From a bacterium (GTDB lineage: Bacteria > Arandabacterota > Arandabacteria > Arandabacterales > JALGWA01), in contig JASFEA010000003.1 in the NCBI GenBank assembly GCA_050125095.1, positions 1-55,304 on the forward strand: a stretch of 55,304 nt of DNA, given 5' to 3'. The position numbers and the translations under genes are program-made. A model generated the notes under the pieces. That model did no database searches, was not told the origin of the DNA, and worked only from the letters and a program-made list of their open reading frames with translations. Within the stretch, counting starts at the first letter, position 1. Every line of letters begins with the position of its first letter. Of this stretch, positions 6,452 to 48,791 are shown piece by piece.

Positions 6452-9385
6452 TCAAGCCCGCATTTCGTTCTGCCGGAGCGGTATCCCCAGCTTCTTCATC
6501 TTGGCGATGAGCGCCGGCCGGCTGATATCTCCCAGGGCTCTTGCCGCGTGCGTCTTGTTCCAGTCATGTTGCCTGAGGGCCGCCAGTATTCGCCTCCTCT
6601 CCACCGTGCGCACTTCGGCCCGCAGCGTCGGCTTATCCGTCCCCTTCCCCAGCCCCGTAATGCACGGGGAGAGGACATGGCGCGACACCGGTTCGCGCGT
6701 CGGAGTCAGGGTTACAGCCCGCTCTATCTCATTCTCGAGCTGGCGTATATTGCCCGGCCAATCATAGCCGGACAGGGCGCTCAGGGCGTCGGTCTCGATG
6801 CTGGTTATCCGTTTCGACATGCGCGCCGAGAACCGCCTCAGGAAGAGCCGGGCCAGGAGGTGTATGTCGGCCTCCCTTTCCCTCAAGGGCGGCAGCGAAA
6901 CCGAAACCACGTTGAGCCTGTAATAGAGGTCCCGTCTCATCCTACCTTCCGCGACTTCCACGTCAAGCCTGCGGTTGGTCGCGCTGACAAAGCGAACGTC
7001 GATACTCCGGGGCGCCGTGTCGCCCACTCTCCTGATCTCGCCGGCCTCCACCGCCCTCAGCATCTTGGCCTGGATTACGGGGCTCACGTCGCCGACTTCG
7101 TCCAGAAAGAAAACACCTCCATGGGCGGCTTCAAGAAGCCCGCGTTTCTCGCCTTTCGCGCCGGTGAACGCGCCTGACCTGTGCCCGAAGAGCTCGCTCT
7201 CCAGGAGATGCTCGGGAAGCGCGGCGCAGTTCTGAGCGACAAACGGGCGGCCCGCCCTTTGGCTCAATATGTGAACCGCTCTGGCCACCAGTTCCTTGCC
7301 GGTTCCCGTCTCCCCTGTGATGAGGACATTAGCCGAGCTTTCGGCGATCCGCGGCAGAGAGAACAGAATGTCTTTCATGTCCGGATCGGCCGATAGTATC
7401 CCGCATATGCAGACGGGAATGCATGCGCGCTCGGCCTTGCCGAGCGCCGATCCCAGAACAGGCAACAGCCGCCCGACTTCGTAGTTGGCTCTGACTACTC
7501 GATCGGCCGCCGAACCGGCGCCTCCGCACACCGGGCGGTCCCAGGTGAGGATGACGAAACCTCTTAAGCGGCCATCCCCGACCGGCAGGGCAAGCAGCGC
7601 CCTGACGTCCGGGGCGGCGAGGTCTCCCCGGGTGGCGGCCACATCACTCATCAATACCGTGCCCGGCATTTCCGGCCCGATGCGGCGGCCGAGTTCCGCG
7701 ACTCTCTCCGGGGTCAGCCCGATGGCGTCCACCACCCTGACGGCCCGGCCGCCCGCCGACTCGACAATCGCCAGACCCGAGATGCCCACTCTCGACGATA
7801 GCATCGCATACGCCTCGCGCGGCGAGGCGGGGACCTCCCGGGACGACTGCGCAAGAACGCCCGCCAGTTCGGCGTCTATTCTCGACCTGACTTCTCTGGC
7901 GCGACAGCCCGCCGTGCCGCCCTCCGCCGCGCGCTCCGCTCTCTCCACCTGCTTGAGGGCCTGTTCATGGCGCCCGGCCCGCAGGTAGGCCTCGGCGAGG
8001 TCGCAGTGCACCGGTGTCATACGCCCGGTGAGGCCGCAGGATATGAATCCTTCCAGCGCCCGCTCGAGATGGCGCGTGCTTCGCTCATGGCCCTGTCCGC
8101 ATGCGGCGCATGCGCGCGCAAGAAGATGGGCCGTAATGGCGGCCTCAGCAACCGCTCCTACGCGCCTGAAGACACGTTCGGCCTTCTCGAGGCCCGCAAT
8201 CCGTCTGGAGCGGTCCGGCTCCGCCAGGGCGATTGTCCTCCGGCATCTCGCCACTTCGAACCTGTCGCCGATGTCGCGCGCTATCTTCATCGCTTCCCGC
8301 GCCACGCGCCCGGCGGCCTCGTTTCGGCCCCGGGCAAGCTCCAGATCGGCCATCCTGGACTTGACCTCGGCTTCGACATCCCTGCACTGGGGAGGAGCCT
8401 CGTCCGCGCATTTCTCCAGAACGGCCCCGGCTTCGTCCAGGTCCCCGGTAAGCGTGAGAAGCTCGCCGAGGGTCTCAAAAGCCACTGCTGTTGCACGCGG
8501 GTCCTCAAGCGACTCGGCTTTCTCTATGGCCTCATTCAGGAGCTCCCGGGCCCGGTCGAAACCGCCGATCAGCATTTCTATCCTCGCGCGCGTAATCACC
8601 CCGAGCACTCTGAGCCGGCTCAGGTTGAGGGACTCCGCTATGCTTATTGCCTCGGAGATCGCCTCCCGCGCCTGCCCTGCTCTACCGGTCTTGTAGGCCG
8701 TATTGGCGAGATTGAGAAGGCGCACGGCCAGGCTCGCGTCGTTCTTCTCCCGCCTGGCCGCTGCCACGGCCTTCTGGAGATAACGCGAAGAGATATTGAA
8801 CCTGCACAGGTTCTTGTATGCTATGCCCAGGTTGTTGAGCGAGTTCCCGAGGCATGTGAGATCGTCGCACATTCGCGCGAAAGTGGCCGCCTGCTCGAAG
8901 CATCTCACCGCTTCCCTCCACTTACAGATCCGGAGGAGCACATGGCCCAGAACCAGGTACACGCGCGCGTCCCCCCGTCTCGCACCCGTGTGCTCTTCGG
9001 CTCTCACCGACGCGCACACTTCGGCGGCCTCACCGTACCTTCCCAGAAGACACAGAAGCGTAGCCTTCTCTGCCAGCAAGTCCCGCCGCCCGGTCGCCTT
9101 GAAGCCCTCCATGACGTCTGAGAGAAAACACAGCGCGTCCTCATGCTTGCTCTGCCTCCTCAGACAGTCGACCACTTTGAGGATGATATCCCTCTTGGCC
9201 GACGCGTTGTCTCCGGCGACCCTGCCGAGCGCCTCTTTGTAATAGGCCAGCGCATCCGATAGATTGCCTACTGATAGGCATAGATCTCCCAGATCAACTT
9301 GTTGCTCAGTTTCTCTATTATCAGTCCCATCCCTGGGAAATTGTCTTCCTTGGATAGAAGTCTCGGGTAGCCTTGGATCACGCAT
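6452..9385 (-). CDS. sigma-54-dependent transcriptional activator with long N-terminal TPR region, GAF-like domain, AAA+ domain and C-terminal Fis-type HTH
   Basis: 977 aa. NVLITGETGTGKELVARAVH (Walker A), ESELFGHRSGAFTGA (GAFTGA loop) and C-terminal NKTHAARALGISRPALIAKMKKLGI (HTH). N-terminal ~450 aa are Ala/Leu/Arg-rich TPR-like repeats. No receiver domain. Confidence 0.85.
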   Translation of the reverse strand: MRDPRLPETSIQGRQFPRDGTDNRETEQQVDLGDLCLSVGNLSDALAYYKEALGRVAGDNASAKRDIILKVVDCLRRQSKHEDALCFLSDVMEGFKATGRRDLLAEKATLLCLLGRYGEAAEVCASVRAEEHTGARRGDARVYLVLGHVLLRICKWREAVRCFEQAATFARMCDDLTCLGNSLNNLGIAYKNLCRFNISSRYLQKAVAAARREKNDASLAVRLLNLANTAYKTGRAGQAREAISEAISIAESLNLSRLRVLGVITRARIEMLIGGFDRARELLNEAIEKAESLEDPRATAVAFETLGELLTLTGDLDEAGAVLEKCADEAPPQCRDVEAEVKSRMADLELARGRNEAAGRVAREAMKIARDIGDRFEVARCRRTIALAEPDRSRRIAGLEKAERVFRRVGAVAEAAITAHLLARACAACGQGHERSTRHLERALEGFISCGLTGRMTPVHCDLAEAYLRAGRHEQALKQVERAERAAEGGTAGCRAREVRSRIDAELAGVLAQSSREVPASPREAYAMLSSRVGISGLAIVESAGGRAVRVVDAIGLTPERVAELGRRIGPEMPGTVLMSDVAATRGDLAAPDVRALLALPVGDGRLRGFVILTWDRPVCGGAGSAADRVVRANYEVGRLLPVLGSALGKAERACIPVCICGILSADPDMKDILFSLPRIAESSANVLITGETGTGKELVARAVHILSQRAGRPFVAQNCAALPEHLLESELFGHRSGAFTGAKGEKRGLLEAAHGGVFFLDEVGDVSPVIQAKMLRAVEAGEIRRVGDTAPRSIDVRFVSATNRRLDVEVAEGRMRRDLYYRLNVVSVSLPPLREREADIHLLARLFLRRFSARMSKRITSIETDALSALSGYDWPGNIRQLENEIERAVTLTPTREPVSRHVLSPCITGLGKGTDKPTLRAEVRTVERRRILAALRQHDWNKTHAARALGDISRPALIAKMKKLGIPLRQNEMRA

Positions 9386-11104: not shown

Positions 11105-13378
11105 CTACCTTACGAGGATCGCTTTCCTCGTAGTCTGGAAGTCGCGCGATTCAAACCTGTAGAAATAGAGCCCCGCCGGGAGCTTCTCGCCGCGGGAGGT
11201 CCTGCCGTCCCATTCGACGACGTTCTCGCCCTCCGCGGCCAGTCCTTCGTAGAGGTTCGCCACCATCCTGCCGGATATGTCGAACACCCGGATGCGCACG
11301 TAAGACTTGCTCGTGAGCGTGAACATGATGTTGGTCGCGCCCGTGAACGGGTTGGGCGAGTTGGAGAGCCGCAGCACGCGTCCGCTGTCATGCGGCACTC
11401 CGGTGTGTGTGGAGTCCGCGGTGAAGGTCCTGACGTCGCTGTCGCCGTAGAGACCATTGTACTTGTTATGCGTCTGGTACCATCCATGTGCATACCACTT
11501 GACGGTCTCTCCCTGCTTGGCGTAAAGCTGCGCGTCGAACACGGCCGTGGGTACGGGGCAGTTGCCCACTATGCCGTCATCCCTTACATAGCTGCCCTCG
11601 ATGCTGTAGGCCGTAGGGCTGGTCTTGGGATCCGTGCCGTCATGCGTGTAAATGAACCTGATCTCCGACCCGTAGCCTCTCGGCGAAATCGAGGCGTTGA
11701 CCATGAGCGACTGCGAGTCCTCGGCGAGATTGCAGAGCAAGGGGCCCGAAGTGGTGCCGGCCGTGCATGTCTGCACCGCGCTCTCGCCGTAGGAGTTGTC
11801 GCTGCCGCGGGCCTCTATGTACCACTTGATTGTGTTCCCGACATCTGCGGTCAGGTAGGCGCCCAGGCTGTCCGTCGAGTCCGTGGACGCTATGAAGTAG
11901 CCGACCGCCGTGTGGGCCGTGCCGCTGGTCTTGGGATCCGTGCCGTCGGTAGTCCAGATGAAGTCGGCATTCGAGCCGTATCCTGACGGGCCCACCTCCG
12001 CGGTCACGTAGTTGGAATCCGGATTACATGTCAGGTTGTAATAGTCGGCGGTGTCGCCCTGTTCGAAAGTGAAGAAGGTGTCGCTCTGGGCGTAATTGTC
12101 ATGCATGTCCTCGCCGTAGGCGAACCAGTTGACCGTGGTCCCCGTGGGAACCATGTCGAGCACCGCGTAGAATTTGTCGTTGTTGCCCAGCTTCGCATCG
12201 AATGTACCGTCGATGGTCTGCACCGTGCCGCTGGTCATGGGGTCGGAGCCGTCCGTCGTGTAGTCGAACTTCACCCACGAGGTTGTGCCTTCATCGCCCT
12301 CGTAGATCTCGGCCCAGATGGTGCAGTCGGTGGGCGTAGAGCCCTCGTTTCCAACCCACGCCGTGCCGCCCTGAACAAAAGACTGAACGGCGTCGCTCCA
12401 GTCGATGATACCTGTCTTGGAGACGCCCTTGGCGATCCACTTGACCGTCGACTCGTCCGGCGCCGAGGAGAATATGGCGTAGAACGTATCCGTCGTATCG
12501 CCACCCACCCTGCAGGTGTCATATGTGCCTGCCACGAAGGCGCTGTTGGAGTCCGGGTCGGAGCCGTCGACCGTGTAGTAGAATGTCATTTGCGTCGTGG
12601 AGCCGCAGTTGCCGGGCGTGATGTCGGCCAGGCCCGTACAAGTGTGGGCGAAGCTTCTCTCGTTATCGACCGTCGCCGAAGGAGGCGCCGGCTCGACGGG
12701 AAGCGAATTCGGAGCCACATTCTGGCCCGTGTCGCGCGTGACGAAGAAATAAGTCATCGCCTGGGGCGTCGCCCCGATGGGATTGGCCTTGGGGAATGAT
12801 GCGACGACGCTGTTCTGGTCCTCGTCGGTAATCCAGGAGCAGACTGCTATGCTGTCGGCATCGACAACCAGGCTTTCCGGTATGCACAGCTCCGACACCA
12901 GATTGCCGTCCCAGCCCCCGTAACTGCAGGCGTCAGACCAGCCCTGGAACACCCACTGGGCGCCGTCCCAGATGCTGTACTCGTACCAGCCGAAGCCGCC
13001 CGAGCGGTAGTAGATCACGTCGGGAAGGAACTTGCCCGAGAAGGTGACATGGGAATAACCGTCGGAAGTCGCGCCCGAGCCGGGCGTGAGGTCGACGTCG
13101 TAAGCTATGAACCAGTCATAGTCCCCGTCTTCCTGGTCGGCATAAGTACCCTGGATGGCATTGAAGAAAGTCGTGTCGTCCCAGGTGAGATGAAAGTCGG
13201 TTCCACCATCGGTCTCTATGAGCTCATCGCTTTCCCACTCCGTTCCACCGAGCTGCGGCGTAGCGTTTTCGATTACGCCGTCGGTGGTCGTGGGTGTGGT
13301 GTAGGTCAGGGCCGCCGCCAGGGCCGGCATCAGCACGAGGCACAGGCCCGCGATGAGCAACCTGCTTGCTCTTCTCAT
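11105..13378 (-). CDS. secreted multidomain protein: signal peptide, CBM9/DOMON-like N-domain (tentative), four tandem ~100-aa modules, FlgD-Ig/T9SS-type C-terminal domain
   Basis: MRRASRLLIAGLCLVLMPALAAA signal peptide. FHLTWDDTTFF resembles CBM9-like domains. The F-x-Y-T-x-D-G-[ST]-D-P motif occurs four times. C-terminus SPNPFTGATNIMFTL...VEWDGRTSRGEKLPAGLYFYRF...RKAILVR. Confidence 0.8.
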   Translation of the reverse strand: MRRASRLLIAGLCLVLMPALAAALTYTTPTTTDGVIENATPQLGGTEWESDELIETDGGTDFHLTWDDTTFFNAIQGTYADQEDGDYDWFIAYDVDLTPGSGATSDGYSHVTFSGKFLPDVIYYRSGGFGWYEYSIWDGAQWVFQGWSDACSYGGWDGNLVSELCIPESLVVDADSIAVCSWITDEDQNSVVASFPKANPIGATPQAMTYFFVTRDTGQNVAPNSLPVEPAPPSATVDNERSFAHTCTGLADITPGNCGSTTQMTFYYTVDGSDPDSNSAFVAGTYDTCRVGGDTTDTFYAIFSSAPDESTVKWIAKGVSKTGIIDWSDAVQSFVQGGTAWVGNEGSTPTDCTIWAEIYEGDEGTTSWVKFDYTTDGSDPMTSGTVQTIDGTFDAKLGNNDKFYAVLDMVPTGTTVNWFAYGEDMHDNYAQSDTFFTFEQGDTADYYNLTCNPDSNYVTAEVGPSGYGSNADFIWTTDGTDPKTSGTAHTAVGYFIASTDSTDSLGAYLTADVGNTIKWYIEARGSDNSYGESAVQTCTAGTTSGPLLCNLAEDSQSLMVNASISPRGYGSEIRFIYTHDGTDPKTSPTAYSIEGSYVRDDGIVGNCPVPTAVFDAQLYAKQGETVKWYAHGWYQTHNKYNGLYGDSDVRTFTADSTHTGVPHDSGRVLRLSNSPNPFTGATNIMFTLTSKSYVRIRVFDISGRMVANLYEGLAAEGENVVEWDGRTSRGEKLPAGLYFYRFESRDFQTTRKAILVR
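11414..12646 (-). repeat. four tandem protein-level repeats (~102-105 aa period) inside the 757-aa protein
   Basis: FYYTVDGSDP (aa 266), FDYTTDGSDP (371), FIWTTDGTDP (473) and FIYTHDGTDP (575). Each is followed ~40 aa later by [VI][KN]W[IFY]. This resembles chitobiase/hexosaminidase C-terminal-type Ig-like modules. Confidence 0.7.
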
Positions 13379-13552: not shown

Positions 13553-13581
13553 ATTATATCACACAAAAACCGCCAAGTCAA
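13553..13581 (-). promoter_or_regulatory. consensus sigma70 promoter TTGACT-N17-TATAAT with TG extension
   Basis: Minus strand TTGACT (13581-13576), 17-nt spacer ending in TGA, then TATAAT (13558-13553). The -35 overlaps the stop codon of the upstream barrel gene. Predicts a ~165-nt leader before ATG 13378. Confidence 0.6.
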
Positions 13582-14525
13582 TTTGGGCTTGTTCCGGTGA
13601 AGGTCACCCCGAAACGGTGGATGGCGTCCAGGGGGCTCGAGTCCTCGTATGTGTAGTCGAGCCAGAACTTGCCGAACCTGACCCCGAATCCGGCGGTGAG
13701 GCCCCTCAGCCATGAGAACCCGGCCTGGCTGTCGGAGTTCTCGCCCACGCGCCTGCGGTACCCCGCGCGCACCCGGAAGTCTTCAGAGATGAGCCCGATG
13801 ACGCCGCTCCTGACCTCCCTTACGCCCCGCTGGCCGATATAATACGAAACACCGCCCGAAAACGGCGTGCCGCCCGAACCCGCAAGCGAGAAGCCCGCCT
13901 CCAAGCCCGCCGGCGATCCCCCGCCGTCCCCATCCTGGGCTATAATCATATTGCGTCCGACGGCGCTAACGTAGGCCGACAGGCCGCGGGCACCGCCGCC
14001 ATATAAACGAAAAGCCCCGCCGACATCAGCCAGCACTCCTGTCCTGAAATCGGCATCCAGCTGCTCCCTGGCGAACTTGAGGCCTGCACCCGCTGAAAGT
14101 CTATCATGCAGCCTCATGCCCGCCGCAAAACCGCCCATAAGTTCGCCAAAAGTGAATGTCTCGCCTTCTCCGCCCGTGGGGTCGTTGAAGTCGGTCCGCG
14201 TGACCTGTCCGGTTGAGAGATAGGAAATATAGACGTCATATGACCAACCCCGCCCGGTTGGGGCTCCAAACCCGGCCAGGCCGCCTTTGAGGGACGTCAG
14301 GTAGTCCATATATCCTCCAGCCACCTCTACCCGATCGAGATAGCCCAACCCCGCCGGATTCCACCAGAAGTCGTTCAGTTCCGGCACCTCGCTCACATAT
14401 GCCTGCGTGGGCGCCGCCCCGGGCAGCATGCCGATATTGGCGGCTGAGAATGACGAAGACCAGCATGCTGACGGAAAGGCGGCAATCACGAGAATTCCCA
14501 GTATGCGCAAATCTGGATTTCGCAT
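13578..14525 (-). CDS. PorV/PorQ-like outer-membrane beta-barrel protein
   Basis: I start at ATG 14525 (MRNPDLRILGILVIAAFPSA, SD GAGAGG). WWNPAGLGYLDRVEVAGGYMDYL resembles the NPAGLA-containing N-terminal strand region of PorV/PorQ/FadL-like barrels. Alternating Gly/aromatic strands run to the C-terminus. Confidence 0.55.
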   Translation of the reverse strand: MRNPDLRILGILVIAAFPSACWSSSFSAANIGMLPGAAPTQAYVSEVPELNDFWWNPAGLGYLDRVEVAGGYMDYLTSLKGGLAGFGAPTGRGWSYDVYISYLSTGQVTRTDFNDPTGGEGETFTFGELMGGFAAGMRLHDRLSAGAGLKFAREQLDADFRTGVLADVGGAFRLYGGGARGLSAYVSAVGRNMIIAQDGDGGGSPAGLEAGFSLAGSGGTPFSGGVSYYIGQRGVREVRSGVIGLISEDFRVRAGYRRRVGENSDSQAGFSWLRGLTAGFGVRFGKFWLDYTYEDSSPLDAIHRFGVTFTGTSPN

Positions 14526-14674
14526 TGAGCTTACCTCTCGTCCACCCTTTACATATATATAAATCACCGGGCGCACAATACTGTTTTTTGGCCCCCAGCC
14601 CGGAGACCGGCCACGCGGGAAAAATGCACGTCCGGCTACGGGAATTTGCCAGAAACCTGCAACAATTTAATTCG

Positions 14675-14703
14675 TTGACTGGGTTCTATGCATGTGATAT
14701 ACT
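14675..14703 (+). promoter_or_regulatory. near-consensus sigma70 promoter TTGACT-N17-TATACT
   Basis: TTGACT at 14675-14680, 17-nt spacer, TATACT at 14698-14703. Predicts a ~115-nt leader before ATG 14824. Confidence 0.6.
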
Positions 14704-14823: not shown

Positions 14824-15474
14824 ATGAATAAAGTTATAGCATGCGCAATTGTTATTGCCGTTGCGTTTCCCGCTTCGGCGTTGGCGGGAATGTTGTTTTT
14901 CGGCTGGCAAATGACGGGCACCATAATGGACTCGCCGGCGCAATACAGCGGGTCCCTGACATGGGGTGCAGTGGGGACATTTGGATTCCAGCTCGATGAC
15001 ACCGGCTGGCCGGATCCATCGGGACAGGTGGCAAGGTGGGACTATATATTCAACACCTACTTCGCCGGCAATTACGACAACTCCACACCTGGTGCTTACA
15101 ACTGGAAGGGCGAGATCGACGGCACGTATGAACTCGTTTTCACCGACGCGCCGCCGGATTTCAACGGTTCCGTTTCAGGGGAGTTCCGCCCGGAGATCAC
15201 TCTCAGGGACATCGACGAGGACGGCATTTTCGATCCCTTCGAGAGAGAGGGTGAAAACCTGATCAACGGCAGTTTCACGATTTCCTGCGGAGCGGGCACC
15301 GGTGAGCTCGAATGCCAGCGCGGATCGGGCTCTATGCAGGACAATTACATGTCCTTCCCGTATCTTCCGGCGACGGATACAATGACCAACGGTAGTGGCA
15401 GCGTGATCCTGAGTGCGTGCCCTTCGGCTGCCGAGCAGTCGTCCTGGGGCAGTATCAAGGCGCTATACAGGTAA
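14824..15474 (+). CDS. secreted protein of unknown family, paralog 1 (EF-hand loop, C-terminal SWGSIKALYR)
   Basis: Start at ATG 14824 behind AAGGAGAG. Signal peptide MNKVIACAIVIAVAFPASALA. DDTGWPDP...RWDY; DIDEDGIFDPFE at 15208-15243; ends SSWGSIKALYR. Confidence 0.7.
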   Translation: MNKVIACAIVIAVAFPASALAGMLFFGWQMTGTIMDSPAQYSGSLTWGAVGTFGFQLDDTGWPDPSGQVARWDYIFNTYFAGNYDNSTPGAYNWKGEIDGTYELVFTDAPPDFNGSVSGEFRPEITLRDIDEDGIFDPFEREGENLINGSFTISCGAGTGELECQRGSGSMQDNYMSFPYLPATDTMTNGSGSVILSACPSAAEQSSWGSIKALYR

Positions 15475-15582
15475 CCAGACGACAGCAAAGTCAAAAGACT
15501 CAAGTCAGAAGGGAGGTGTCGCCGCCACCGAATATATATGTCTTGATGTCACTCACTTTAAGGGAATCATGGAGGGTAGGAA

Positions 15583-16227
15583 ATGATGAAAAGGCTAGTG
15601 TTGGTTTTCGCCGCTTGTCTGCTTATTGCAGGTGTTGCTCATGCTGAGCGGACCGTGAACTTCTTCTCCCAGGGTACCGGCAATATGGTCGCGGATGTCG
15701 GCAACGTGATTTACGGCGGCCAGATCGTGGGCGGTGATCTCGCTCCCGGTATCTGGTACATCGATATTGATGACACAGGTTGGCCCGTTGACCCGGGCCC
15801 GAGATGGGACTACCTCTGGACCACGTTCTATATTTATTCGCCGGGCACGCCCAGCGTGTGGACGGCTACCTTCGACGCGCCTCTTCTGGCGTCCCGTCCG
15901 GTTCTCTATATTGAGCATACGGGCGTGGGCAGCATGTCAGGCGTCGCGGATATGCGTTTCCAGGTCACTGACTGGGACGACGATGGCGTGCTTGATCCGG
16001 ACGAGTGCGACGGCGACGGTCTCACCGGTATAGTCATCATTATTGAGGATGGAACGGGCGATTACGCTGATCAGTGCGGTGATGGCACCTATCAGGGTGG
16101 TTACACCAGAGACTGCGAAACCTGGGACGATTTCGTCCAGTTCCAGTGGAGTATCGACCTGTACGAGTGCGGCATGGCTACCGAGCCGGCCAGTTGGGGA
16201 GCCATTAAGTCTCTCTACAACCAGTAG
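15583..16227 (+). CDS. secreted protein of unknown family, paralog 2 (EF-hand loop, C-terminal SWGAIKSLYNQ)
   Basis: SD GGAGGGTAGG. Signal peptide MMKRLVLVFAACLLIAGVAHA. DDTGWPVDPGPRWDY; DWDDDGVLDPDE at 15970-16005; ends ASWGAIKSLYNQ. Confidence 0.75.
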   Translation: MMKRLVLVFAACLLIAGVAHAERTVNFFSQGTGNMVADVGNVIYGGQIVGGDLAPGIWYIDIDDTGWPVDPGPRWDYLWTTFYIYSPGTPSVWTATFDAPLLASRPVLYIEHTGVGSMSGVADMRFQVTDWDDDGVLDPDECDGDGLTGIVIIIEDGTGDYADQCGDGTYQGGYTRDCETWDDFVQFQWSIDLYECGMATEPASWGAIKSLYNQ

Positions 16228-16404
16228 AATTCAGACTGAGCCGACAGAGCCAGCGAGAGCTGTTTATGCAGTTGCCGGGACGCTAGTGACGCTCGTTGCA
16301 GGCGAGTATTGAATTACAGAATTAAATAAAGATCCGCACTTGACAACAGTGAGACGGCAACGGGGTTTGCTTTGTCGGCGGACTCCAACAGGAGAAGTGC
16401 GGGA

Positions 16405-19400
16405 ATGTCAAGGATAAGAAGCGGGGATATTATAACGGGGGTGGTGGTGGCCCTCATGGCCATCGCCGTCCCCCTGTCTTCATCTACTGCGGCAGAGACC
16501 ACTTCCGTGAGCCTCAGTATCGAAGCGTCCTCCACACAGGTCGGCGAATCCGGGACTATCTGCTTCCCGGTACCGGAATGCGCCGGAATAGAGGCCGACT
16601 TCACCCTGGACGGACTCCCTCTGAGTATGAGCCTCGTAAAGACGGCCTATATAAGGGACCAGCGTATCGCCGTTTTCAGGGCGAATGACGGCATCCCTGA
16701 GACCGGCGAGATCCAGGTAACGCTGAGTTTCGACGGGGCCGTCGGTCCGGCGCTTGTTGACGCCGGGCCGCTAACGCGCACGTGCTCGGAAGTGCTGACG
16801 GGCTACGGCAGCGCATTCGTGCCCGGGCCGCCTTCGGGCCCCGGTTCCGTGACGAGATGCCAGTCGCTCGCCGACTGCGCCAATGCCGGTGCGGACATCC
16901 TTCTCATAATGGGGCACGCCATCCGCCTCAGCGCTTATGTCGATTCGATCGGAAGACACTGGGCCGAGACCATGGGACTAAATGTCGCGATTATAGACGT
17001 TGACCGGATTTCGGCTTACAGCCCCGTCATGGTCCGCGATTTCATCAAAGCCCTTTACAATACGGGTTCCGCAGAACATTTCGGCGACGGGCACCTGGGC
17101 TTCGTGATTCTCCTGGGTGACGCATATGAAGACGACAATGTGACCCGCATGGTCCCTGAATACGACGGCTACGGGGGAGACGCGGAGGCCTCGGACCACT
17201 TCTACGCATGCATAAAGGGCGACGACGAGTTCGAGGACATAATGATAGGGCGCATCCCCGTCGGAAACGAGCTCGAGCTGGCCTATTACTACGCCAAGCT
17301 CACGTCCTACACCCCCCTGCCGGCAGAGGACTGGACCAGGTCCTTCCTCTTCGCGGGCGGCTGCTTCTTTGCTTTGAAGCAGGACTATGTGAATCTGTTC
17401 GACAGCCTGGCGGTCTACCTGCCGCCGGACGTGCATGACTCGCGTTATTACAGGTACGACTTCCCACAGACCGACCCCGGGGACGCCCAGGCCATACAGG
17501 CCATGGTCGACTCGCTTGAGGCGGGCCGCCTGTTCGTCATGTACTGCGGCCACGCCGACCGCTGGAACTGGGGCGGCAGATTCGAGAGGGTCTTCGGAAG
17601 CGGCCGCATTCCGGATCTGGCGAATGCCGACCGGCTCCCGATAATCCTCTCTATCGCATGCTACAGCGGGTGGTTCGACAACACGGAATACACTTTCTCG
17701 GACGGCGGGGTCGACTGCTTCGCCGAGCGCCTGCTTACGAATCCCGGCGGCGGCGCGGTGGCATGCCTGGCATCGTCCAGGGATACCGGCGGCGGGGCAT
17801 CGACCGAGTTCACGTCCCAGATCATAAGAGCGGCCTATGTCAACGGGTCCAGTTATCTGGGCGAGCTCATGCTCGAGGCCAAGACGAGGCATCTCTGCCG
17901 CCTCGGGAATATCGAGTACGTAAGGCAGTTCAACCTGTTCGGAGACCCATGCCTCAACTTCGTTCTCAACCAGGAACCTGTCAGCCAGCCCGATCTCGTG
18001 CTGAGGCCTTACCACGTGAAAGTATCCCCCGAGTTCATCAAGAACGGGGAAACGGTAACGGTGACGGCGGAAGTCTGGAACGCCGGCGGCGAGAGCGTTG
18101 CGGAATTCGACGTTGCCATCTATGACGGCGACCCGGACGCCGGCGGCGAACTCGTGGGGGTCGAGACCCTCGCCGACTTCTGGGGCTGGGAGAAGCGCTG
18201 GGTGGAATTCGAAATTCATGGCGCCGAGGGCGGGGCCCTGGACATACACCTGGTGGCCGACCCGGAAGAGATGATTCCGGAGGTGGATGAGGACAACAAC
18301 ACGACATCCGTCGAGACCTACGTTTACCCGTGCCAGGCCGGCTTCCCGGTAAAGCTCGGCGAAGACGTCAAGGGGCAGGTGATGGCCGACCTGGACGCCG
18401 ACGAGGACCTGGACATATTGGTCACATCGGGCGGGACCCTGGCTCAGGCCCTCACGTCTGACGGCAACACCATATGGCTCAGGGAAAACCTGGGCCAGAA
18501 GGAGTGGTTCGAGAACATAGAGCCGGCGGCATGCGACCTCAACGGCGACGGCGCGACGGAGGTCATCCTCACTACGAAGAGCGCGGTACTGGTGCTTGAG
18601 GGAGCGACCGGCAACACCATCTGGCAGCGTTTCACCGACAACGCCAGCGTGTCCCCCGTGGTGGCAGACCTCGACCATGACGGGAGCTTCGAAGTGCTGC
18701 TGGCCACCTACAACTTCATGGCCGCTAAGATGTACGCCTTCAACACGCAGGGCGCCTACAGGTGGATCTATTCCCTGCCCGGGTCATTCGGGGCCATTAC
18801 CAGTCTTGTCTGCGGGGACTTTGATCAGGACGGTTACCTGGAGGTCATGATGGCCGGAGGCGGCGAGACGGGCAATCTCAGATGCTTCAGCTGTTCCGAT
18901 GACCCGGATGAACAGCCTCATTCCCTCTGGACTTCCCAACTCACCTCTCAGGGTGTCGCCTGCGCGGTCGGCGCCGACATACAGAGGGACGGCGACCTGG
19001 AGATAATAGCCGGCAGCGGGAACAACGTGTACGTCGTGGAGGCGATGACCGGGCAGATCATCGAAACGGTGGAGCTTCCCCACCCGGCTACCAGCCTGTC
19101 AATAGCCGACACAGACAATGATGAGGTCCTCGAGATTCTCTGCACATCGGAAATGGGCTACCTTTACAGGATTGATGACCTGCAGGTTGTGCTGGAGAAA
19201 GACCTGGGAGGCACCCCGGTCGAGGCCCCCATAACGGCCGATCTCGACGGGGATGGGACCACAGAGATCATATGCAGCCTGCGCGAGGGTAAGGTCTGCA
19301 TAATAAGCCCCACGGGCGGCGATTTCATGGCCCCGGTGCCGATAAGGAACATGTGCTACTCGACGCCCGTCGCCGGCGATATAGACATGGACGGGAGGAT

Positions 19401-20835
19401 CGAGGTATTTGCCGGATCGGTCGACTCCGTGCTTTTCGCGCTCGACCTCGGCATTCAGGGCGGCAGAAGCGAGTGGCCCTGCGCGGGGGCGTCCGGCATC
19501 AGGATGGGGATCTACGCCCAGCCCTTCACCGGCATGTTCACCGATGACTTCGTGCTATACGGACGGGTGGACATCGTGGGCGACGTAGTGATCGATGAGG
19601 GAAGCAAGCTCATCATTGAAAGAGGCACCGACATCCGATTGGTCTCCCATGACATTTACGGTGGCGGGGCATCATCACAACTGTGCGAGGTGTTCGTGAG
19701 GGGAGACCTCGTATGCAGGGGAACAAGCCTCCATCCGGTGACCATGACCGGGCTCGCCTATCCCGACGAACCCGGCACGTGGATGGGCATAATGGTGGAG
19801 GATGAGGGCACTGCGACTATATCAAGGACCTCCATTAGAAACGCGGTCACCGGAATCGACTGCCGCAATGACGACATCTATCTGTCCGAGTCGGAGATAT
19901 CGAACTGCATCATGGCCGTCAAGGTGGACGCCACGTCACCCGTGCTTGATAACAACGAGCTTTACAACAACACATATGCCGTTTCGGCCAACGGCGGCAG
20001 TCCCGTCCTTGTCGGGAACAAGATGCATCACAACTCCTACGCGGGCGTGGTGATGTCGGACGGCTGCACCGCGGTCATGGACAAGAACGTCATAAGCAAT
20101 ACCACCAGCGGAAGCGGCCTGGCCTGCTACAACTCCAATCCGACCATACTTCCGGGCAACAAGTTCGAGTACAATGCCTTGAACGGCATCTACCTGGGCA
20201 CAAGCTCCCCCGTCATCGACTCATGTTACGTGGCTTTCAACGGCGACTGCGGCATCAAGGTGGCCATGTCCTCATCACCCGTGATAACAAAGACCTCAAT
20301 TGTCGGAAACAGGTTCGGCTTCGGCATATATAACAACTCCAATCCCGTGCTCGGGGACGACGGGGCGGGGCTCGGCGGGCTCAATGACATTCGGGACAAT
20401 GAGATGCTCGCCATAAAGAACTACACGGCGAATACGATCATGGCCCGGACGAACTGGTGGGGCACCGACACCCCCGAACCGGGGCTATTCATGGGGCCCG
20501 TGGACTATTCGCTGTGGCTTACGACGGCGCCCGCCGGCGTGGATGACATCGACCTTGTTGATAATCTGATGTTCAGTCTCTATCCGAACCCGTTCGTGCA
20601 CCAGGTCAATCTGAGTTTCTCGATTTCTTCCCGCGATGTCCCCCTCGAGGTCAGCATCTACAACGTCCGGGGGAAGCTGGTTAAGAAGGTACTCTCGGAG
20701 GACCACCCGGGTCTGGTCCAGGTCGCCTGGGACGGCACGGACTCGCGCGGCCGCAGGGTGGCGAGCGGGACATATCTGGTCGCCGTCAAGTCGCGTTCGC
20801 ATTGCGTGACGCGAAAGGTGGTACTTCTCCGTTAG
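16405..20835 (+). CDS. peptidase C25 (gingipain/PorU-type cysteine peptidase) fused to CARDB, FG-GAP repeats, right-handed beta-helix and FlgD-Ig/T9SS-type C-terminal domain
   Basis: Start at ATG 16405 (AGGAGAAG SD). C25 core FVILLGD, MIGRIPV, FVMYCGHADRWNW (His codon 17548-17550), LPIILSIACYSGWF (Cys codon 17659-17661), CFAERLL and NLFGDPCL. CARDB at ~17983-18321. Beta-helix at ~19549-20466. C-terminus YPNPFVHQVNLSF...VAWDGTDSRGRRVASGTYLV...RKVVLLR. Confidence 0.85.
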   Translation: MSRIRSGDIITGVVVALMAIAVPLSSSTAAETTSVSLSIEASSTQVGESGTICFPVPECAGIEADFTLDGLPLSMSLVKTAYIRDQRIAVFRANDGIPETGEIQVTLSFDGAVGPALVDAGPLTRTCSEVLTGYGSAFVPGPPSGPGSVTRCQSLADCANAGADILLIMGHAIRLSAYVDSIGRHWAETMGLNVAIIDVDRISAYSPVMVRDFIKALYNTGSAEHFGDGHLGFVILLGDAYEDDNVTRMVPEYDGYGGDAEASDHFYACIKGDDEFEDIMIGRIPVGNELELAYYYAKLTSYTPLPAEDWTRSFLFAGGCFFALKQDYVNLFDSLAVYLPPDVHDSRYYRYDFPQTDPGDAQAIQAMVDSLEAGRLFVMYCGHADRWNWGGRFERVFGSGRIPDLANADRLPIILSIACYSGWFDNTEYTFSDGGVDCFAERLLTNPGGGAVACLASSRDTGGGASTEFTSQIIRAAYVNGSSYLGELMLEAKTRHLCRLGNIEYVRQFNLFGDPCLNFVLNQEPVSQPDLVLRPYHVKVSPEFIKNGETVTVTAEVWNAGGESVAEFDVAIYDGDPDAGGELVGVETLADFWGWEKRWVEFEIHGAEGGALDIHLVADPEEMIPEVDEDNNTTSVETYVYPCQAGFPVKLGEDVKGQVMADLDADEDLDILVTSGGTLAQALTSDGNTIWLRENLGQKEWFENIEPAACDLNGDGATEVILTTKSAVLVLEGATGNTIWQRFTDNASVSPVVADLDHDGSFEVLLATYNFMAAKMYAFNTQGAYRWIYSLPGSFGAITSLVCGDFDQDGYLEVMMAGGGETGNLRCFSCSDDPDEQPHSLWTSQLTSQGVACAVGADIQRDGDLEIIAGSGNNVYVVEAMTGQIIETVELPHPATSLSIADTDNDEVLEILCTSEMGYLYRIDDLQVVLEKDLGGTPVEAPITADLDGDGTTEIICSLREGKVCIISPTGGDFMAPVPIRNMCYSTPVAGDIDMDGRIEVFAGSVDSVLFALDLGIQGGRSEWPCAGASGIRMGIYAQPFTGMFTDDFVLYGRVDIVGDVVIDEGSKLIIERGTDIRLVSHDIYGGGASSQLCEVFVRGDLVCRGTSLHPVTMTGLAYPDEPGTWMGIMVEDEGTATISRTSIRNAVTGIDCRNDDIYLSESEISNCIMAVKVDATSPVLDNNELYNNTYAVSANGGSPVLVGNKMHHNSYAGVVMSDGCTAVMDKNVISNTTSGSGLACYNSNPTILPGNKFEYNALNGIYLGTSSPVIDSCYVAFNGDCGIKVAMSSSPVITKTSIVGNRFGFGIYNNSNPVLGDDGAGLGGLNDIRDNEMLAIKNYTANTIMARTNWWGTDTPEPGLFMGPVDYSLWLTTAPAGVDDIDLVDNLMFSLYPNPFVHQVNLSFSISSRDVPLEVSIYNVRGKLVKKVLSEDHPGLVQVAWDGTDSRGRRVASGTYLVAVKSRSHCVTRKVVLLR
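18334..19461 (+). repeat. eight FG-GAP/VCBS-type repeats (protein level) in the C25 protein
   Basis: DLDADEDLDILV, DLNGDGATEVIL, DLDHDGSFEVLL, DFDQDGYLEVMM, DIQRDGDLEIIA, DTDNDEVLEILC, DLDGDGTTEIIC and DIDMDGRIEVFA, spaced 44-53 aa apart. Confidence 0.75.
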
Positions 20836-22991: not shown

Positions 22992-25952
22992 CTAGAAATC
23001 TCCCCCGAGCGTGAAGTGCACTCGCTTTTGCGCCGGGCCGCCGAAGTTCGTGGCCCAGGCGAAATCGAGCCTCATGAGAAGGTAAGAGAAGACCATCCTG
23101 AAGCCGAAACCGTAGGCGGCGTGGAAGTCGGCTAGCTGCTGGGAGCCCTCCACGGTGTGCATCCAGCGGACGTCGTTGAACTGCCCGTTCCAGGCGCTTC
23201 CTATGTCGAAGAAGAACACGCCGCGGATGCCTCCGAGCATCAGCGGAATCGGGCCGCGCGTCACCAGCCGGTCGATGAATGGATAGCGGAGCTCCAAGCT
23301 GGCGAAGGCCATGTTATTGCCCTCGAACTGGAAATCGGGATAGCCCCTGAGCGTGTATCCTCCGCCGAGCGAGAAGACCACGGGATCCAGGCCCTGGCTC
23401 GTTGCCGCGCTCATCCGGAACGCCAGCGATGTGCTGGAGGTGAACCGGAAGTACTTGCGGAAGTCCACATAGCCCGAGTTGTAGTTGAGGTCGCTTCCGA
23501 GCACATCCACTATGCTTTTGTCGAAGCTCAGGAAATACCTCGTGCCGCCGACGGGCCCCATCATCCCCCAAATCGTGTTGTCCTTCACGTACGACAGGCG
23601 GACCGAATAGAGATCGTATGAATTGCGCGACGCGATTATGGGCGCCGGCAGGTACTCGGAACCGTCCTCAAAGATCTCGCGGTCTATTCTCTGAGCCGTG
23701 AACTCAAGGTCTACTCGCCTGAACTTATCGAGCGGGTAGGACAGCGCAAGCAGCCCGCCGTAGTTCCGCTCGGAGAAGAAGCGGTCCACCCTTCCCTCGC
23801 CGATGGGTATCCCCATGGTCGAACGGCTCGCGTAGTAGTAGTTCTTGAAGTGAAAGACGCCGAACCCGTAATTTATCCTGTGCTTGAGGTAGTTATATAT
23901 CCCCAGGAAGTCAGTTTCCTGGAAGGAAGAGAAGAACTCCGTGGCAATCGAGATCCTGTGATTGCCGAGAACGTCGCTCACGGACAGCTGGGTGAAACCA
24001 CCGAGGCCGTATGCCGTGCTGTACTGGAAGGACCCGCCGACGTAATCGGGCGTGAAGTTGATGCGGTACGGCTTTACCTCATAGTCGAGAGCTTGTTCGA
24101 TCAGCGCGCTGTCCGCGATTCCCGGCGCCATGTCGATAACCGGCGGCGCAAACGCTATTGTGCTGCGCTCCTCCAGCCAGGGCGCTTCCCACGTCCAGTC
24201 TTCTTCCTTCTGCTTCCGTATTATGCCGAGGTTCTCGGCCGGATTCTTGATCTGGAAGACGTCCCAGCCCGCTTCATTGAAGCAGCTGAAGGCGATGCGG
24301 TTACCCTCTCGCGACCATGACGGGGTGAAGATGCCGCCCAGGATGTTGGTTATCTGTGCAGTAGTCGAGTCACCGAAGTCATAGATGAAGAGGTTATAGG
24401 ACCCGTCCCTGTCCGAAACGAACATGAGCCTGTCGTTCTCCTCCCCCCAGACCGGCGAGAGGTCCTCGCACTCGCAGTAGGTGACCCGCTCGGTCACGCC
24501 GTGGTCTATATCGAGCACGTAGATGTCGCGCGTCGGCTTGACCCAGGGCCCCACGCGGGAGATCTCGCACAGAGAATCCACGCAGCCGGGGGCTATGGCC
24601 GAGAACGCGATCCTGCTGGCGTCGGCCGAGAACGCTATGGCCGAGTACTCCAACGCGCCGGAGTGTATCTCCTCCACCTCGCCCGACTCGATGTCCAGCG
24701 AATATATCCCGGCCGCCCCCCTCCGGGTTCCCACGAAGGCGATGGAACTGCCTTCCGGCGACCAGGCCGGATAGCTCATGGTGTCGAATTCGGGCTGGAA
24801 TCTCTCGAGGTTCTTACCACCGGGAGCGTCTATGATGTACAGGGCGTCGCCCTTGCCCCGCTTACTCACGAAGGCTATCCGTCTGCTGTCCGGGGACCAG
24901 GCGAAACTGCTCCTCAGGCTATGGAACGACTCGAAGTCCTGGGATCTCTGTCCTTTGACGAGGCGCCGGATCTCCCTGCCGTCGATCGCCGACATCAGGT
25001 ATATGTCGTAATAGCCGCTCTTGTCTGAAAGATAGACGATCAGCTGGCCATCGGGCGAAATGGACGGCATGCCGTTTACGAAGGAGTCCCCCTTGCGGTG
25101 GTCCGTGAGCCTCTGGGCCACTTCATCCGGCTCGTCCTTTGAGGAGATATCCGGCCAGTACCGCTCGCGAAGATACTCGGACCACGATTCCGTGAGCCCC
25201 TGAGTGTCCACGCCGATTGTGTTCATGAGCGCCGCGTCTATATTCCTGGTCGAGGCCACCGCCTGCAGGATGTCGGGGATCTTCTCGGGGCCGTACTTGT
25301 CGGCGATGTACCTTATAACGGACTGGCCCTGTTTATAGGCCAGGTACCCGTACACGTCGTAGTACAGGGGGAAGTAGTAGCCGCTTATGGCCGCGTCCCG
25401 CATAACCATCTCGGCCTCCGTGTCCCAGGCCGAAGCCTCGAACTCGGGTATCCCCTCCATGAACCACAGGGGCAGCCGGAACAGGTACTGGCGCGTGAAT
25501 ATGGACTCCAGCAGGCCTCCGTATACTATGTCGAAAGTGAAAACATGCGTGAGCTCGTGATATACAAGATGCCTCAGGTCTTCATAGGAACCGTTGAAAT
25601 GTATGACCACGCGGTTCTTGAAAATCTCCGTGAACCCCTCCGTCCCCTCCTCAAGAAGAGACATCGTCACGTTCGTCTGCTGGAACTCGTGGTGGGAGGC
25701 GTATACGATTATGGGGGTCCGCTTCCCCAGCTCGTGTTTGAGATGCGAGCTGAGCGAATCGTATGAGGCGTCGGCAATGACCGCAACGCGCCGCGCAAGG
25801 TCCTCTTCGCCCTCGTAATAGTAAACGTCGAAGTACTTGGAGGCAAGTACCGCCCAGTCGAATACCCTGTACTGCACCTTGTTCTTGCCGAACCCCGCGG
25901 CAAGCGACGGGATGAGAAGGAGCAGCAACATTGTAAGAGCAATCCGCCTCAT
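22992..25952 (-). CDS. outer-membrane chimera: MA-clan HExxH peptidase-like domain + TolB-type PD40 beta-propeller + Omp85 (surface antigen D15) beta-barrel
   Basis: 986 aa, signal peptide MRRIALTMLLLLLIPSLAAG. YHELTHVF (25545-25559) followed by WFMEGIPEF. PD40-like ISPDGQLIVYLSDKSGYYDIYLM, WSPDSRRIAFVS and WSPEGSSIAFVG. C-terminal barrel ends ...VHFTLGGDF (terminal Phe). Confidence 0.8.
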   Translation of the reverse strand: MRRIALTMLLLLLIPSLAAGFGKNKVQYRVFDWAVLASKYFDVYYYEGEEDLARRVAVIADASYDSLSSHLKHELGKRTPIIVYASHHEFQQTNVTMSLLEEGTEGFTEIFKNRVVIHFNGSYEDLRHLVYHELTHVFTFDIVYGGLLESIFTRQYLFRLPLWFMEGIPEFEASAWDTEAEMVMRDAAISGYYFPLYYDVYGYLAYKQGQSVIRYIADKYGPEKIPDILQAVASTRNIDAALMNTIGVDTQGLTESWSEYLRERYWPDISSKDEPDEVAQRLTDHRKGDSFVNGMPSISPDGQLIVYLSDKSGYYDIYLMSAIDGREIRRLVKGQRSQDFESFHSLRSSFAWSPDSRRIAFVSKRGKGDALYIIDAPGGKNLERFQPEFDTMSYPAWSPEGSSIAFVGTRRGAAGIYSLDIESGEVEEIHSGALEYSAIAFSADASRIAFSAIAPGCVDSLCEISRVGPWVKPTRDIYVLDIDHGVTERVTYCECEDLSPVWGEENDRLMFVSDRDGSYNLFIYDFGDSTTAQITNILGGIFTPSWSREGNRIAFSCFNEAGWDVFQIKNPAENLGIIRKQKEEDWTWEAPWLEERSTIAFAPPVIDMAPGIADSALIEQALDYEVKPYRINFTPDYVGGSFQYSTAYGLGGFTQLSVSDVLGNHRISIATEFFSSFQETDFLGIYNYLKHRINYGFGVFHFKNYYYASRSTMGIPIGEGRVDRFFSERNYGGLLALSYPLDKFRRVDLEFTAQRIDREIFEDGSEYLPAPIIASRNSYDLYSVRLSYVKDNTIWGMMGPVGGTRYFLSFDKSIVDVLGSDLNYNSGYVDFRKYFRFTSSTSLAFRMSAATSQGLDPVVFSLGGGYTLRGYPDFQFEGNNMAFASLELRYPFIDRLVTRGPIPLMLGGIRGVFFFDIGSAWNGQFNDVRWMHTVEGSQQLADFHAAYGFGFRMVFSYLLMRLDFAWATNFGGPAQKRVHFTLGGDF

Positions 25953-45722: not shown

Positions 45723-45812
45723 CCCCGGTGGCAAAGCAAACCCCGGTGGCGAAGCAGCCTGTGATTGCGGAGCAATCGTCCCTTGCGAAGCAATCCTGAG
45801 GATTGCAGGCGG
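45723..45812. repeat. degenerate 18-bp tandem repeat (about 5 units) between rnpB 3' end and the relA start
   Basis: Plus-strand units CCCCGGTGGCAAAGCAAA / CCCCGGTGGCGAAGCAGC / CTGTGATTGCGGAGCAAT / CGTCCCTTGCGAAGCAAT / CCTGAGGATTGCAGGCGG. On the minus strand they contain short palindromes TTGC-TTC-GCAA, ATTGC-TCC-GCAAT and GCAATCC-TCA-GGATTGC. Confidence 0.8.
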
Positions 45813-45813
45813 G

Positions 45814-46190
45814 CGGTGGAGCAGGTAATAAGCCGAGTTCTGTTCCCGGGAGCCCTACCGCAAGTCCCCCCCGGGACGATGGTCATTAATCTAAGGATGC
45901 GGATTGCCCCGCACCTCATGCGGCCCAACCCGGGAATTATAGCGAAGCGGGCAGCTTCTCTTCCCCTATTTGGCCTTGCTCCAGGTGGGGTTTACCTAGC
46001 TGCCCCCGTCACCGGGGGCACTGGTGAGCTCTTACCTCACCGTTTCACCCTTACCGGCCGAAGCCGGCGGTATGCTTTCTGTGGCACTATCCTTGGGATC
46101 GCTCCCACTGGGGATTACCCAGCACCCTGCCCTGTGGAGCTCGGACTTTCCTCACACGGCGTAGCCGTGCGCGACCACCTAACCTGCTCC
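45814..46190 (-). ncRNA. rnpB: RNase P RNA, bacterial type A
   Basis: Minus strand: P1 GGAGCAGGT (46190-46182) pairs with ACCTGCTCC (45826-45818). P3 hairpin CACGGC-TAC-GCCGTG. Universally conserved GAGGAAAGTCCGAGCTCCACAGGGCAGGGTGC, GGTAAGGGTGAAA, AGCAAGGCCAAATAGGGG and ACAGAACTCGGCTTAT. Ends are approximate (+/-5 nt). Confidence 0.88.
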
Positions 46191-48765: not shown

Positions 48766-48791
48766 TAATACAAGAGTATAGAAAGCGAAAA

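Follow-up and report, generated by a model that had tools for sequence, protein, structure and literature searches.

A short C-terminal tag on unrelated secreted bacterial proteins and its proposed coupling to PorU-type C25 peptidases

Surface proteomes are recognized and predicted through their C-terminal sorting signals, every newly found one of which has been a pointer to dedicated machinery. One known signal is the type A C-terminal domain of T9SS, the type IX secretion system (models TIGR04183 and PF18962, Por_Secre_tail), an Ig-like beta-sandwich of 45–100 residues with motifs B, D (GxY), and E, which is cut by the C25 sortase PorU and is found at the C-termini of Sec-exported passengers of surface or extracellular type (beta-helix, BACON, CBM) in the Fibrobacterota–Chlorobiota–Bacteroidota (FCB) group. 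PorQ, PorU, PorV, and PorZ are reported to make up the attachment complex of Porphyromonas (PMC12365241), and PorZ is described as bringing anionic lipopolysaccharide (LPS) to PorU (PMC8545088). PorV binds C-terminal signals, PorU favours a small P1' residue, and the last 22 residues alone of the Porphyromonas gingivalis Hbp35 C-terminal domain are strictly needed for green fluorescent protein to be secreted and attached (PMC11969387). A second group of signals (LPXTG, PEP-CTERM, GlyGly-CTERM, MYXO-CTERM, and PGF-CTERM) consists of short motifs at the ends of unrelated secreted proteins, with several to many copies per genome in particular lineages. Here we analyse a 55,304-nucleotide stretch of DNA from an Arandabacterota bacterium (contig JASFEA010000003.1 of assembly GCA_050125095.1, positions 1–55,304; hereafter the window), in which two adjacent genes, A and B, encode secreted proteins that end in a 16–20-residue element with the core WGxIKxLY, referred to below as the tag.

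Gene A (14824..15474, + strand) encodes a secreted all-beta protein of 216 amino acids (aa) and gene B (15583..16227, + strand) a 214-aa paralog, both tagged, as judged from the open reading frames (ORFs), homologs, and AlphaFold2 models. The two proteins align over their full lengths at 30 per cent identity (BLASTP; E = 3e-18), which identifies them as paralogs. As read from the sequence, each N-terminus consists of an n-region with K/R, a hydrophobic stretch, and a cleavage site of the AxA type (ASALA↓G in A; AHA↓E in B), giving putative signal peptides MNKVIACAIVIAVAFPASALA↓G in A (14824..14886, + strand) and MMKRLVLVFAACLLIAGVAHA↓E in B (15583..15645, + strand). The N-terminal helices of the AlphaFold2 models fall within these signal peptides (residues 4–19 in A, with low predicted local distance difference test [pLDDT] scores; residues 2–18 in B). 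For gene A, the start at 14824 is favoured over an upstream ATG at 14806 because homologs begin with MNK and because a ribosome-binding site, AAGGAGA, precedes the ATG at 14824 on the + strand.

The initial annotation of this DNA had described the genes as adjacent secreted paralogs with shared blocks, loops, and C-termini, and our analysis recovers each of these features. The conserved block LDDTGWP..RWDY of A (LDDTGWPDPSGQVARWDY, 14992..15045, + strand) has D59, W62, P63, and R71 invariant in the alignment, and its counterpart in B (IDDTGWPVDPGPRWDY, 15766..15813, + strand) has W67, P68, R74, and W75 invariant; several Cys residues are common to the two proteins. The extreme ends, each followed by the stop codon, are SSWGSIKALYR in A (to 15471) and ASWGAIKSLYNQ in B (to 16224). 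Aligned with homologs, the tag region of A (CPSAAEQSSWGSIKALYR, 15418..15471, + strand) comprises an invariant Cys, a linker, the core WGxIKxLY, and a terminal R, and that of B (CGMATEPASWGAIKSLYNQ, 16168..16224, + strand) has C196, W205, K209, and L211 invariant. The last 16–20 residues of A and B are one copy each of a modular C-terminal tag. We derive for it the sequence [TVS]-[PA]-V-E-E-x-[ST]-W-G-x-[IV]-K-[AS]-[LM]-[YF]-R as consensus; the stop codon usually comes 0–3 residues later, and in many copies a Cys lies a short distance upstream. The copies in A (AEQSSWGSIKALYR) and B (TEPASWGAIKSLYNQ), both immediately before the stop codon, are slightly degenerate versions of this consensus; each protein has the core motif, [ST]-W-[GS]-x-[IV]-K-x-[LMI]-[YF], no more than about 3 residues from its C-terminus, a putative signal peptide, and an acidic residue 3–4 positions upstream of the W, the features by which we propose to define the tag. 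Across all six frames of the 55-kb window, WGx[IVL]KxxY/F occurs in ORFs A and B only.

The A/B family is small and known from metagenomes only (53 close relatives of B and 15 of A; 36 representatives at 50 per cent clustering), and nearly all members are 200–250 aa long. All 78 members with intact ends finish with C-x4-E-x3-W-[GS]-x-[IV]-K-x-[LMI]-[YF]-x(0-3), and the W, K, and Cys stay invariant at 25–30 per cent identity, where the remaining sequence has drifted. The L is also invariant in the homolog alignments of A and B, and some divergent B-like proteins have a W-[TS]-x-I-K variant. The full PVEE form is present in family members such as P0057, P0072, and P0078, which ties A and B to the canonical motif. 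In 34 further metagenome loci, A-like and B-like genes almost always occur as a tandem pair with both members tagged.

Because A and B are paralogs, their shared ends could be ancestral, that is, the conserved terminus of a fold without any function as a tag. The AlphaFold2 models place the last ~15 residues of both proteins in a low-confidence tail (pLDDT 46–51) outside the all-beta cores (mean pLDDT 86.6 for A, with residues 21–200 above 90, and 82.3 for B), with a short helix over WGxIKxLY (residues 208–215 in A and 205–212 in B). A profile of the last 42 aa returned nine weak matches, which are not a census but include unrelated short proteins ending in (A/S)VPVEE[ST][ST]WG[SA]IK[AS][LM][YF]x, among them one with a CHRD domain and one with the end of a parallel beta-helix.

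One genome per Genome Taxonomy Database (GTDB) species was searched for VEEx[ST]WGx[IV]KxxY/F at the DNA level, with GTNGARGARNNNWSNTGGGGNNNNRTHAARNNNNNNTWY, a pattern that includes no stop codon. The pattern carries ~38 bits of information, so that ~3 matches are expected by chance in 2 x 596 Gb; it was found in at least 120 stretches of the species-representative genomes (counts of carriers, clusters, and hosts here and below rest on the matches listed). The motif ends 0–12 residues short of a stop codon in 125 of the 127 listed matches, 119 of which have a distance of 0–3 residues. The two matches away from a C-terminus (L062 and L078, the latter from Phocaeicola) are not near a stop codon and appear to be due to chance. 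Named hosts include Latescibacterota (~19 loci), Eisenbacteria (~17), Krumholzibacteriota (~13), Gemmatimonadota (5), Coatesbacteria (2), UBP1 (2), and one metagenome-assembled genome (MAG) of Fibrobacteraceae, the others being MAGs from many independent studies. A scan of IMG/VR with the same pattern gave one match, also C-terminal: a protein of ~130 aa with a lipoprotein-type signal (LTGC) that ends in GRVEESTWGGIKDRFRNT before the stop codon (L161:4095-4133; IMGVR_UViG_3300022413_000023). Either this carrier is on a phage or prophage, or the contig is misclassified.

After removal of the last 22 residues, 94 complete carriers fall into at least 43 unrelated BLASTP clusters, whose recognizable passengers include Chlamydia-PMP/beta-helix, BACON, CBM9, and DUF7901 domains. 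When the A/B profile was aligned with those of two unrelated carriers (hhalign), the alignment was confined to the last 23–28 columns. A common peptide that ends 43 unrelated clusters, a profile–profile alignment limited to the tail, and a tail outside the confident core make the terminus of A and B extremely improbable as a mere fold end or ancestral remnant, a reading that is effectively excluded, and the terminus does not form the last strand of any known fold.

A relaxed regular expression raised the number of carriers to 143 among the 2461 ORFs of these loci, often in tandem arrays, and in 135 of the 143 copies the protein ends 0–3 residues past the motif. Positions that were not part of the seed pattern are biased as well: P/A at -6 in 77 per cent, A/S after the K in 80 per cent, then L/M, and R after the Y/F in 59 per cent; A, S, or G follows this invariant Lys in 85 per cent of copies. 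A signal-peptide heuristic was positive for 101 of 123 carriers (82 per cent) and for 107 of 314 neighbouring control ORFs (34 per cent). The proposal that the motif recurs at the C-termini of other, non-homologous proteins with signal-peptide-like N-termini is thus borne out.

An element found at gene ends, sometimes directly before another gene (C25), might instead act at the level of nucleic acid or translation, as an RNA element, as a mobile repeat in the DNA, or, like SecM or TnaC, as a C-terminal ribosome-arrest peptide that controls the next gene. The conserved Trp would be in line with some arrest peptides, and one locus (L009, described below) has a free-standing copy past a stop codon. 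Across the tag genes, however, third codon positions and the DNA 3' of the stop codon are essentially unconstrained, which indicates that selection acts on the peptide. The tail past the Y/F is of variable length, a common downstream gene is lacking for most carriers, and no Rfam family was found at the A/B locus. We consider an action through DNA, RNA, or translational arrest very improbable, and effectively excluded.

T9SS type A C-terminal domains are plentiful in the carrier loci: they were recognized in 59 ORFs of 46 loci, and none of the 143 tag carriers has one. In three loci (L097, L116, and L011), tag proteins have passengers that are homologous to the N-terminal parts of adjacent T9SS-domain proteins, with 43–44 per cent identity over about 200 aa in L097. 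The two signals, which share genomes, loci, and kinds of passenger, are therefore mutually exclusive alternatives on related passengers. In L009 (3340-3476), a 1020-aa protein with a type A domain stops at TGA (3413-3415), and a tag remnant, VAGTPVEESSWGSIKAMYQ followed by a stop codon, begins 1 nt later, out of frame. This free-standing remnant looks like the fossil of an event in which a T9SS domain replaced a tag or was inserted before it. We rejected a programmed +1 frameshift as a means of joining the relic to the T9SS domain, because from the sequence the P-site AAG would not be expected to re-pair after the slip.

The tag itself is not a T9SS C-terminal domain, since it matches no T9SS profile hidden Markov model (HMM), has no beta-sandwich, and lacks motifs B and D. 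Neither A, B, nor 10 canonical carriers matched TIGR04183 or PF18962 (E <= 1 for NCBIfam; E <= 0.1–1 for Pfam), whereas their neighbours score 29–34 bits with these models. What follows the core is some 16–20 residues only, for which the models show coil and one short helix at a pLDDT of about 50; GxY is absent. Two features nevertheless recall the T9SS signal: the tag Lys lies ~5 residues from a usually basic C-terminal residue, which loosely resembles the ...[ST]RK[MV]xLL[RK] end of the domain, and the small residue after the Lys resembles the P1' preference of PorU (PMC11969387).

Nor is the tag a tripartite sortase-type signal such as LPXTG, because neither a transmembrane segment nor a basic cluster follows it; the protein ends 0–3 residues later. 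It shares with those signals its brevity, its restriction to particular lineages, its several copies per genome on unrelated secreted proteins, and a 'choice of anchor' logic, by which passengers that are homologs of one another end in different C-terminal signals. A further difference would be the enzyme: a soluble or surface C25 peptidase is the candidate for the tag, and an intramembrane or membrane-bound sortase serves the tripartite signals. The beta-signal of outer-membrane proteins, in which hydrophobic residues alternate, ends a beta-barrel with an aromatic residue, unlike the tag, which mostly ends in R (59 per cent) on proteins whose models have no significant Foldseek match. In agreement with the initial annotation, which had recognized no named sorting signal in the motif, no NCBIfam sorting-signal model matched A, B, or the canonical carriers; A and B match no Pfam or NCBIfam model at all, and no model in either database (June 2026) covers the tag. 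A sequence search of the Protein Data Bank (PDB) with the tag profile gave nothing at E <= 10, and we found no description of the tag in the literature on the motif strings, on these phyla with T9SS or sorting, or on recently reported sorting signals. The tag behaves like a sorting signal in that it is modular, lineage-restricted, multicopy, and swappable with another signal on related passengers, and it appears to be an undescribed C-terminal sorting or recognition signal of a known general kind. The suggestion of a novel C-terminal recognition or processing tag is supported to this extent, recognition and processing themselves being what we infer.

The candidate enzyme is encoded next to A and B. 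Starting 144 nt 3' of B, a gene at 16372..20835 (+ strand) encodes a PorU-like 1487-aa peptidase, assigned by HMM, with Peptidase_C25 (PF01364; 180 bits), CARDB, FG-GAP, and right-handed beta-helix regions and, at its C-terminus, a T9SS type A domain (PF18962/TIGR04183). A C25 catalytic domain with a retained T9SS C-terminal domain is the architecture of PorU; the PorU equivalog model NF033707 scores 132.5 bits against this protein, below its cut-off of 420, and 'PorU-like' therefore refers to architecture, with no claim of orthology. Its catalytic residues are presumably His394 (YCGHADRW) and Cys430 (SIACYSGW), by analogy to RgpB. Divergent from gene A lies a gene for an outer-membrane barrel resembling the PorV/PorQ family (13578..14576, - strand), assigned from sub-cut-off HMM scores: 73.6 bits for NF033709 (cut-off 90), 59 for the PorQ model (220), and 19.7 for the PorV model (250), with no other matches. 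The two neighbours are those named in the initial annotation.

The association with C25 genes extends to passengers unrelated to A and B. In L016 and L117 (which are orthologous), L070, L086, L043, and L010, a C25 gene lies directly downstream, on the same strand, of 1–4 small tag genes, none with a passenger related to A and B; when the A/B profile was compared with the L016 carriers, the tag was the sole aligned part. The C25 gene of L086 encodes Propeptide_C25, Peptidase_C25 (194 bits), and a T9SS domain, and that of L016 also ends in a T9SS domain and has a further tag gene convergent to it. In L043 (1833-7823; a Krumholzibacteriia MAG) and L010 (96-7998), four tandem paralogous tag genes (183–235 aa) precede one C25 gene. 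With A-B-C25 included, there are six arrangements of one polarity, PorU-like wherever the end of the C25 gene is visible, and if side and strand were random the chance of a shared polarity would be ~(1/4)^5–6, whatever the background density of C25 genes.

We hypothesize that the tag is a short sorting/processing tag coupled to PorU-type C25 peptidases, a mechanism that we infer and to which we assign a probability of about 0.5. After Sec export, the flexible tail would present the tag to a PorU-type C25 peptidase or its attachment machinery, so that the tag would serve as a short sorting/processing signal instead of a 70–100-aa T9SS domain. Speculatively, cleavage or transpeptidation might take place at the invariant Lys, K↓[AS], or the Lys of the tag might be the acceptor nucleophile. 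In the lineage of the window, the apparent A-B-C25 operon, together with the PorV/Q-like and C-terminal-domain genes, would be the equivalent of a T9SS attachment-complex locus. That a minimal T9SS signal can be as short as 22 residues and that PorU prefers a small P1' residue (PMC11969387) make it plausible that the tag is a PorU-type signal. We put forward more tentatively, as a possibility less likely than the general coupling, that the tag is a substrate motif of a PorU-type C25 transpeptidase, a ~16-residue LPXTG-like signal whose Lys would be either the scissile P1 residue or the acceptor nucleophile for T9SS cargo. Were the Lys P1, the chain would, speculatively, be cut at K↓A/S and its new C-terminus passed to an acceptor on the surface.

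Several points weigh against a coupling to C25 peptidases. For most carriers (more than 100 loci), the 8-kb stretch contains no C25 gene, and divergent A/B pairs in L142 and L151–L153 have neither a C25 nor a PorV-like gene within 7–10 kb. The putative enrichment of C25 genes rests mainly on their consistent orientation, and the proposed link between tag and enzyme is drawn from gene order. The seed pattern was strict and the matches are those listed, so that residue frequencies at the seeded positions are circular. The tag has no T9SS motifs B and D, and it is weakly predicted to be helical and not a beta-strand. An HMM search for PorV/Q-like genes found no relative in carrier loci outside the lineage of the window. 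Clustering of the ORFs across the 120 listed carrier loci likewise gave no recurrent partner family besides T9SS-domain proteins, the carriers themselves, and the C25 subset. The association with C25 or PorV genes proposed in the initial annotation accordingly holds in part: C25 proximity recurs with unrelated passengers, although most carriers are not adjacent to such a gene, and PorV proximity does not extend beyond the window's lineage.

The same gene order could reflect a non-covalent, dockerin-like docking peptide on uncleaved accessory subunits, whose receptor would be the PorV/PorQ-type barrel or a surface-anchored C25 protein. Such docking would suit the co-orientation of 1–4 small tagged paralogs with one large anchored enzyme, the occurrence of A and B as a pair, the adjacent PorV/Q-like barrel in the window's lineage, and the known binding of C-terminal signals by PorV (PMC11969387). 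No PorV-like gene lies near other carriers, however, and more than 100 loci have carriers without a candidate receptor nearby, so that we regard docking as unlikely.

The predicted helix over WGxIKxLY on a flexible tail also invites comparison with peripheral anchors. MinD and the penicillin-binding proteins PBP5 and PBP6 use C-terminal amphipathic helices for anchoring, and the MinD membrane-targeting sequence and the PBP5/PBP6 anchors resemble the tag in being very short C-terminal segments of helical propensity with aromatic and basic residues behind a flexible linker. A short amphipathic helix of this kind (Trp/Tyr, Lys/Arg) would stick to a membrane leaflet, LPS, or peptidoglycan and need no dedicated enzyme, in keeping with the carriers, the majority, that have no enzyme gene nearby, with the tolerance of the tag's position (0–3, rarely up to 12, trailing residues), and with a moderate hydrophobic moment of 0.37–0.52, an analysis that does not discriminate helix from strand. 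The helix is, however, very short (8–9 residues), with mean hydrophobicity of about 0. In MinD and PBP5/PBP6, it is amphipathicity and not sequence that is conserved; the tag keeps an invariant W-G-x-[IV]-K, preceded by the acidic VEE, in 43 passenger families and across phyla, a conservation much tighter than an amphipathic helix would call for. An anchor would also leave unexplained both the recurrent co-oriented C25 genes and the exclusivity with T9SS C-terminal domains, and we think it rather unlikely.

Apart from the tag, A and B share a putative Ca-binding loop, DIDEDGIFDPFE in A (15208..15243, + strand; D129 and G134 invariant) and DWDDDGVLDPDE in B (15970..16005, + strand; D130 invariant, and G135, D138, and E141 nearly invariant). 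The initial annotation had called these loops perfect, canonical EF-hands. The liganding positions agree with that description: both loops follow D-x-D-x-D-G-x-[ILF]-D-x-x-E and fit an EF-hand at positions 1, 3, 5, 6 (Gly), 9, and 12. As a whole the description goes too far, as neither loop matches PROSITE PS00018 (F at position 8 in A; W, which is excluded, at position 2 in B). Whereas EF-hands are helix-loop-helix elements and usually paired, the AlphaFold2 models show a single loop after a beta-strand (E115–128 in A; E124–129 in B), not between two helices. PS00018 is matched by 6 of 88 family members and a loose DxDxDG pattern by 60 of 88, and the family profile is weakly similar to the KChIP1 EF-hand loop (E = 0.3). 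The loop is better termed DxDxDG-type, and Ca binding by this predicted loop is plausible. Foldseek searches of PDB with the A and B models gave no match at E < 1e-3 (best E 0.01–0.03, TM-score about 0.13–0.3), and small outer-membrane barrels appeared among insignificant matches only (E 0.07–0.5, TM-score 0.13–0.18). In P0063 (2903 aa), an A/B-like domain (residues 24–218) is the N-terminal module of an untagged giant beta-helix/Big_9/cadherin-like protein, which suggests that large surface proteins, too, can have the A/B core as one of their domains.

The surroundings of A and B are conserved in related genomes. Downstream of the PorV/Q-like gene, a gene at 11105..13378 (- strand) encodes a secreted protein of 757 aa, assigned by HMM, that has CHB_HEX_C-like repeats and ends in a T9SS type A domain. 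The arrangement of this C-terminal-domain gene and the PorV/Q-like gene, divergent from A, B, and C25, is kept down to about 35 per cent identity. The order A-B-C25 is present in L001, L002, L126–L129, L132, L137, L138, and L140, and orthologs of the barrel gene occupy the equivalent position in L001, L002, L126–L129, L132, and L133. A promoter-like sequence 5' of gene A (14675..14703, + strand), TTGACT-17 nt-TATACT with an extended TG, agrees with the consensus at 10 of 12 positions and is assigned from that match only; no terminator-like sites were found between A, B, and the C25 gene. In L152 (7961-8968), a 335-aa FG-GAP-like repeat protein is encoded 5' of the divergent A/B pair that has no C25 gene; FG-GAP is also present in the C25 protein of the window. 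A gene upstream of the locus (6452-9385, - strand), conserved there in L001, L002, and a 17-kb JGI contig, encodes a sigma-54 activator of 977 aa that begins with a long TPR region and is a possible regulator of the cluster.

The remainder of the window is core chromosome, with genes for BamA, TamB, an Omp85/PD40 fusion, RseP, dxr, cdsA, uppS, rpsB, relA, rpoD, dnaG, mutS2, and RNase P RNA. In the fusion (22992-25952, - strand), an unusual protein of 986 aa, Peptidase_MA is joined to PD40/Tricorn-like beta-propeller repeats and, at the C-terminus, to an Omp85 barrel; the fusion adjoins TamB (25969-29862) and the canonical BamA (29865-31763) and is kept in L001 and L002. RNA searches identified a class A RNase P RNA (45814-46190, - strand; 305 bits) and genes for tRNA-Val(CAC) and tRNA-Met(CAT) (48689-48868, - strand). 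An ORF at 45765-46571 (+ strand) lies opposite the RNase P gene, with which it overlaps, and is probably spurious.

In Latescibacterota, Eisenbacteria, Krumholzibacteriota, and Gemmatimonadota, the number of tagged proteins per genome is at least several. These phyla are abundant in soils and sediments and almost entirely uncultured, and to our knowledge their cell-envelope biology is essentially unknown. An HMM of the tag would re-annotate thousands of 'hypothetical proteins' as a single sorted class, and the tag comes with a concrete candidate partner enzyme, the C25 peptidase; its gene-order link to PorU-like C25 peptidases offers a testable handle on T9SS-type attachment outside Bacteroidota. 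If the tag is indeed a substrate of a C25 transpeptidase, it would represent a second, minimal route of T9SS-type attachment in diderm bacteria of the FCB group, one that does not need a folded C-terminal domain, and a peptide signal this short, read by a sortase-like enzyme of Gram-negative bacteria, would be of interest for protein engineering, too.

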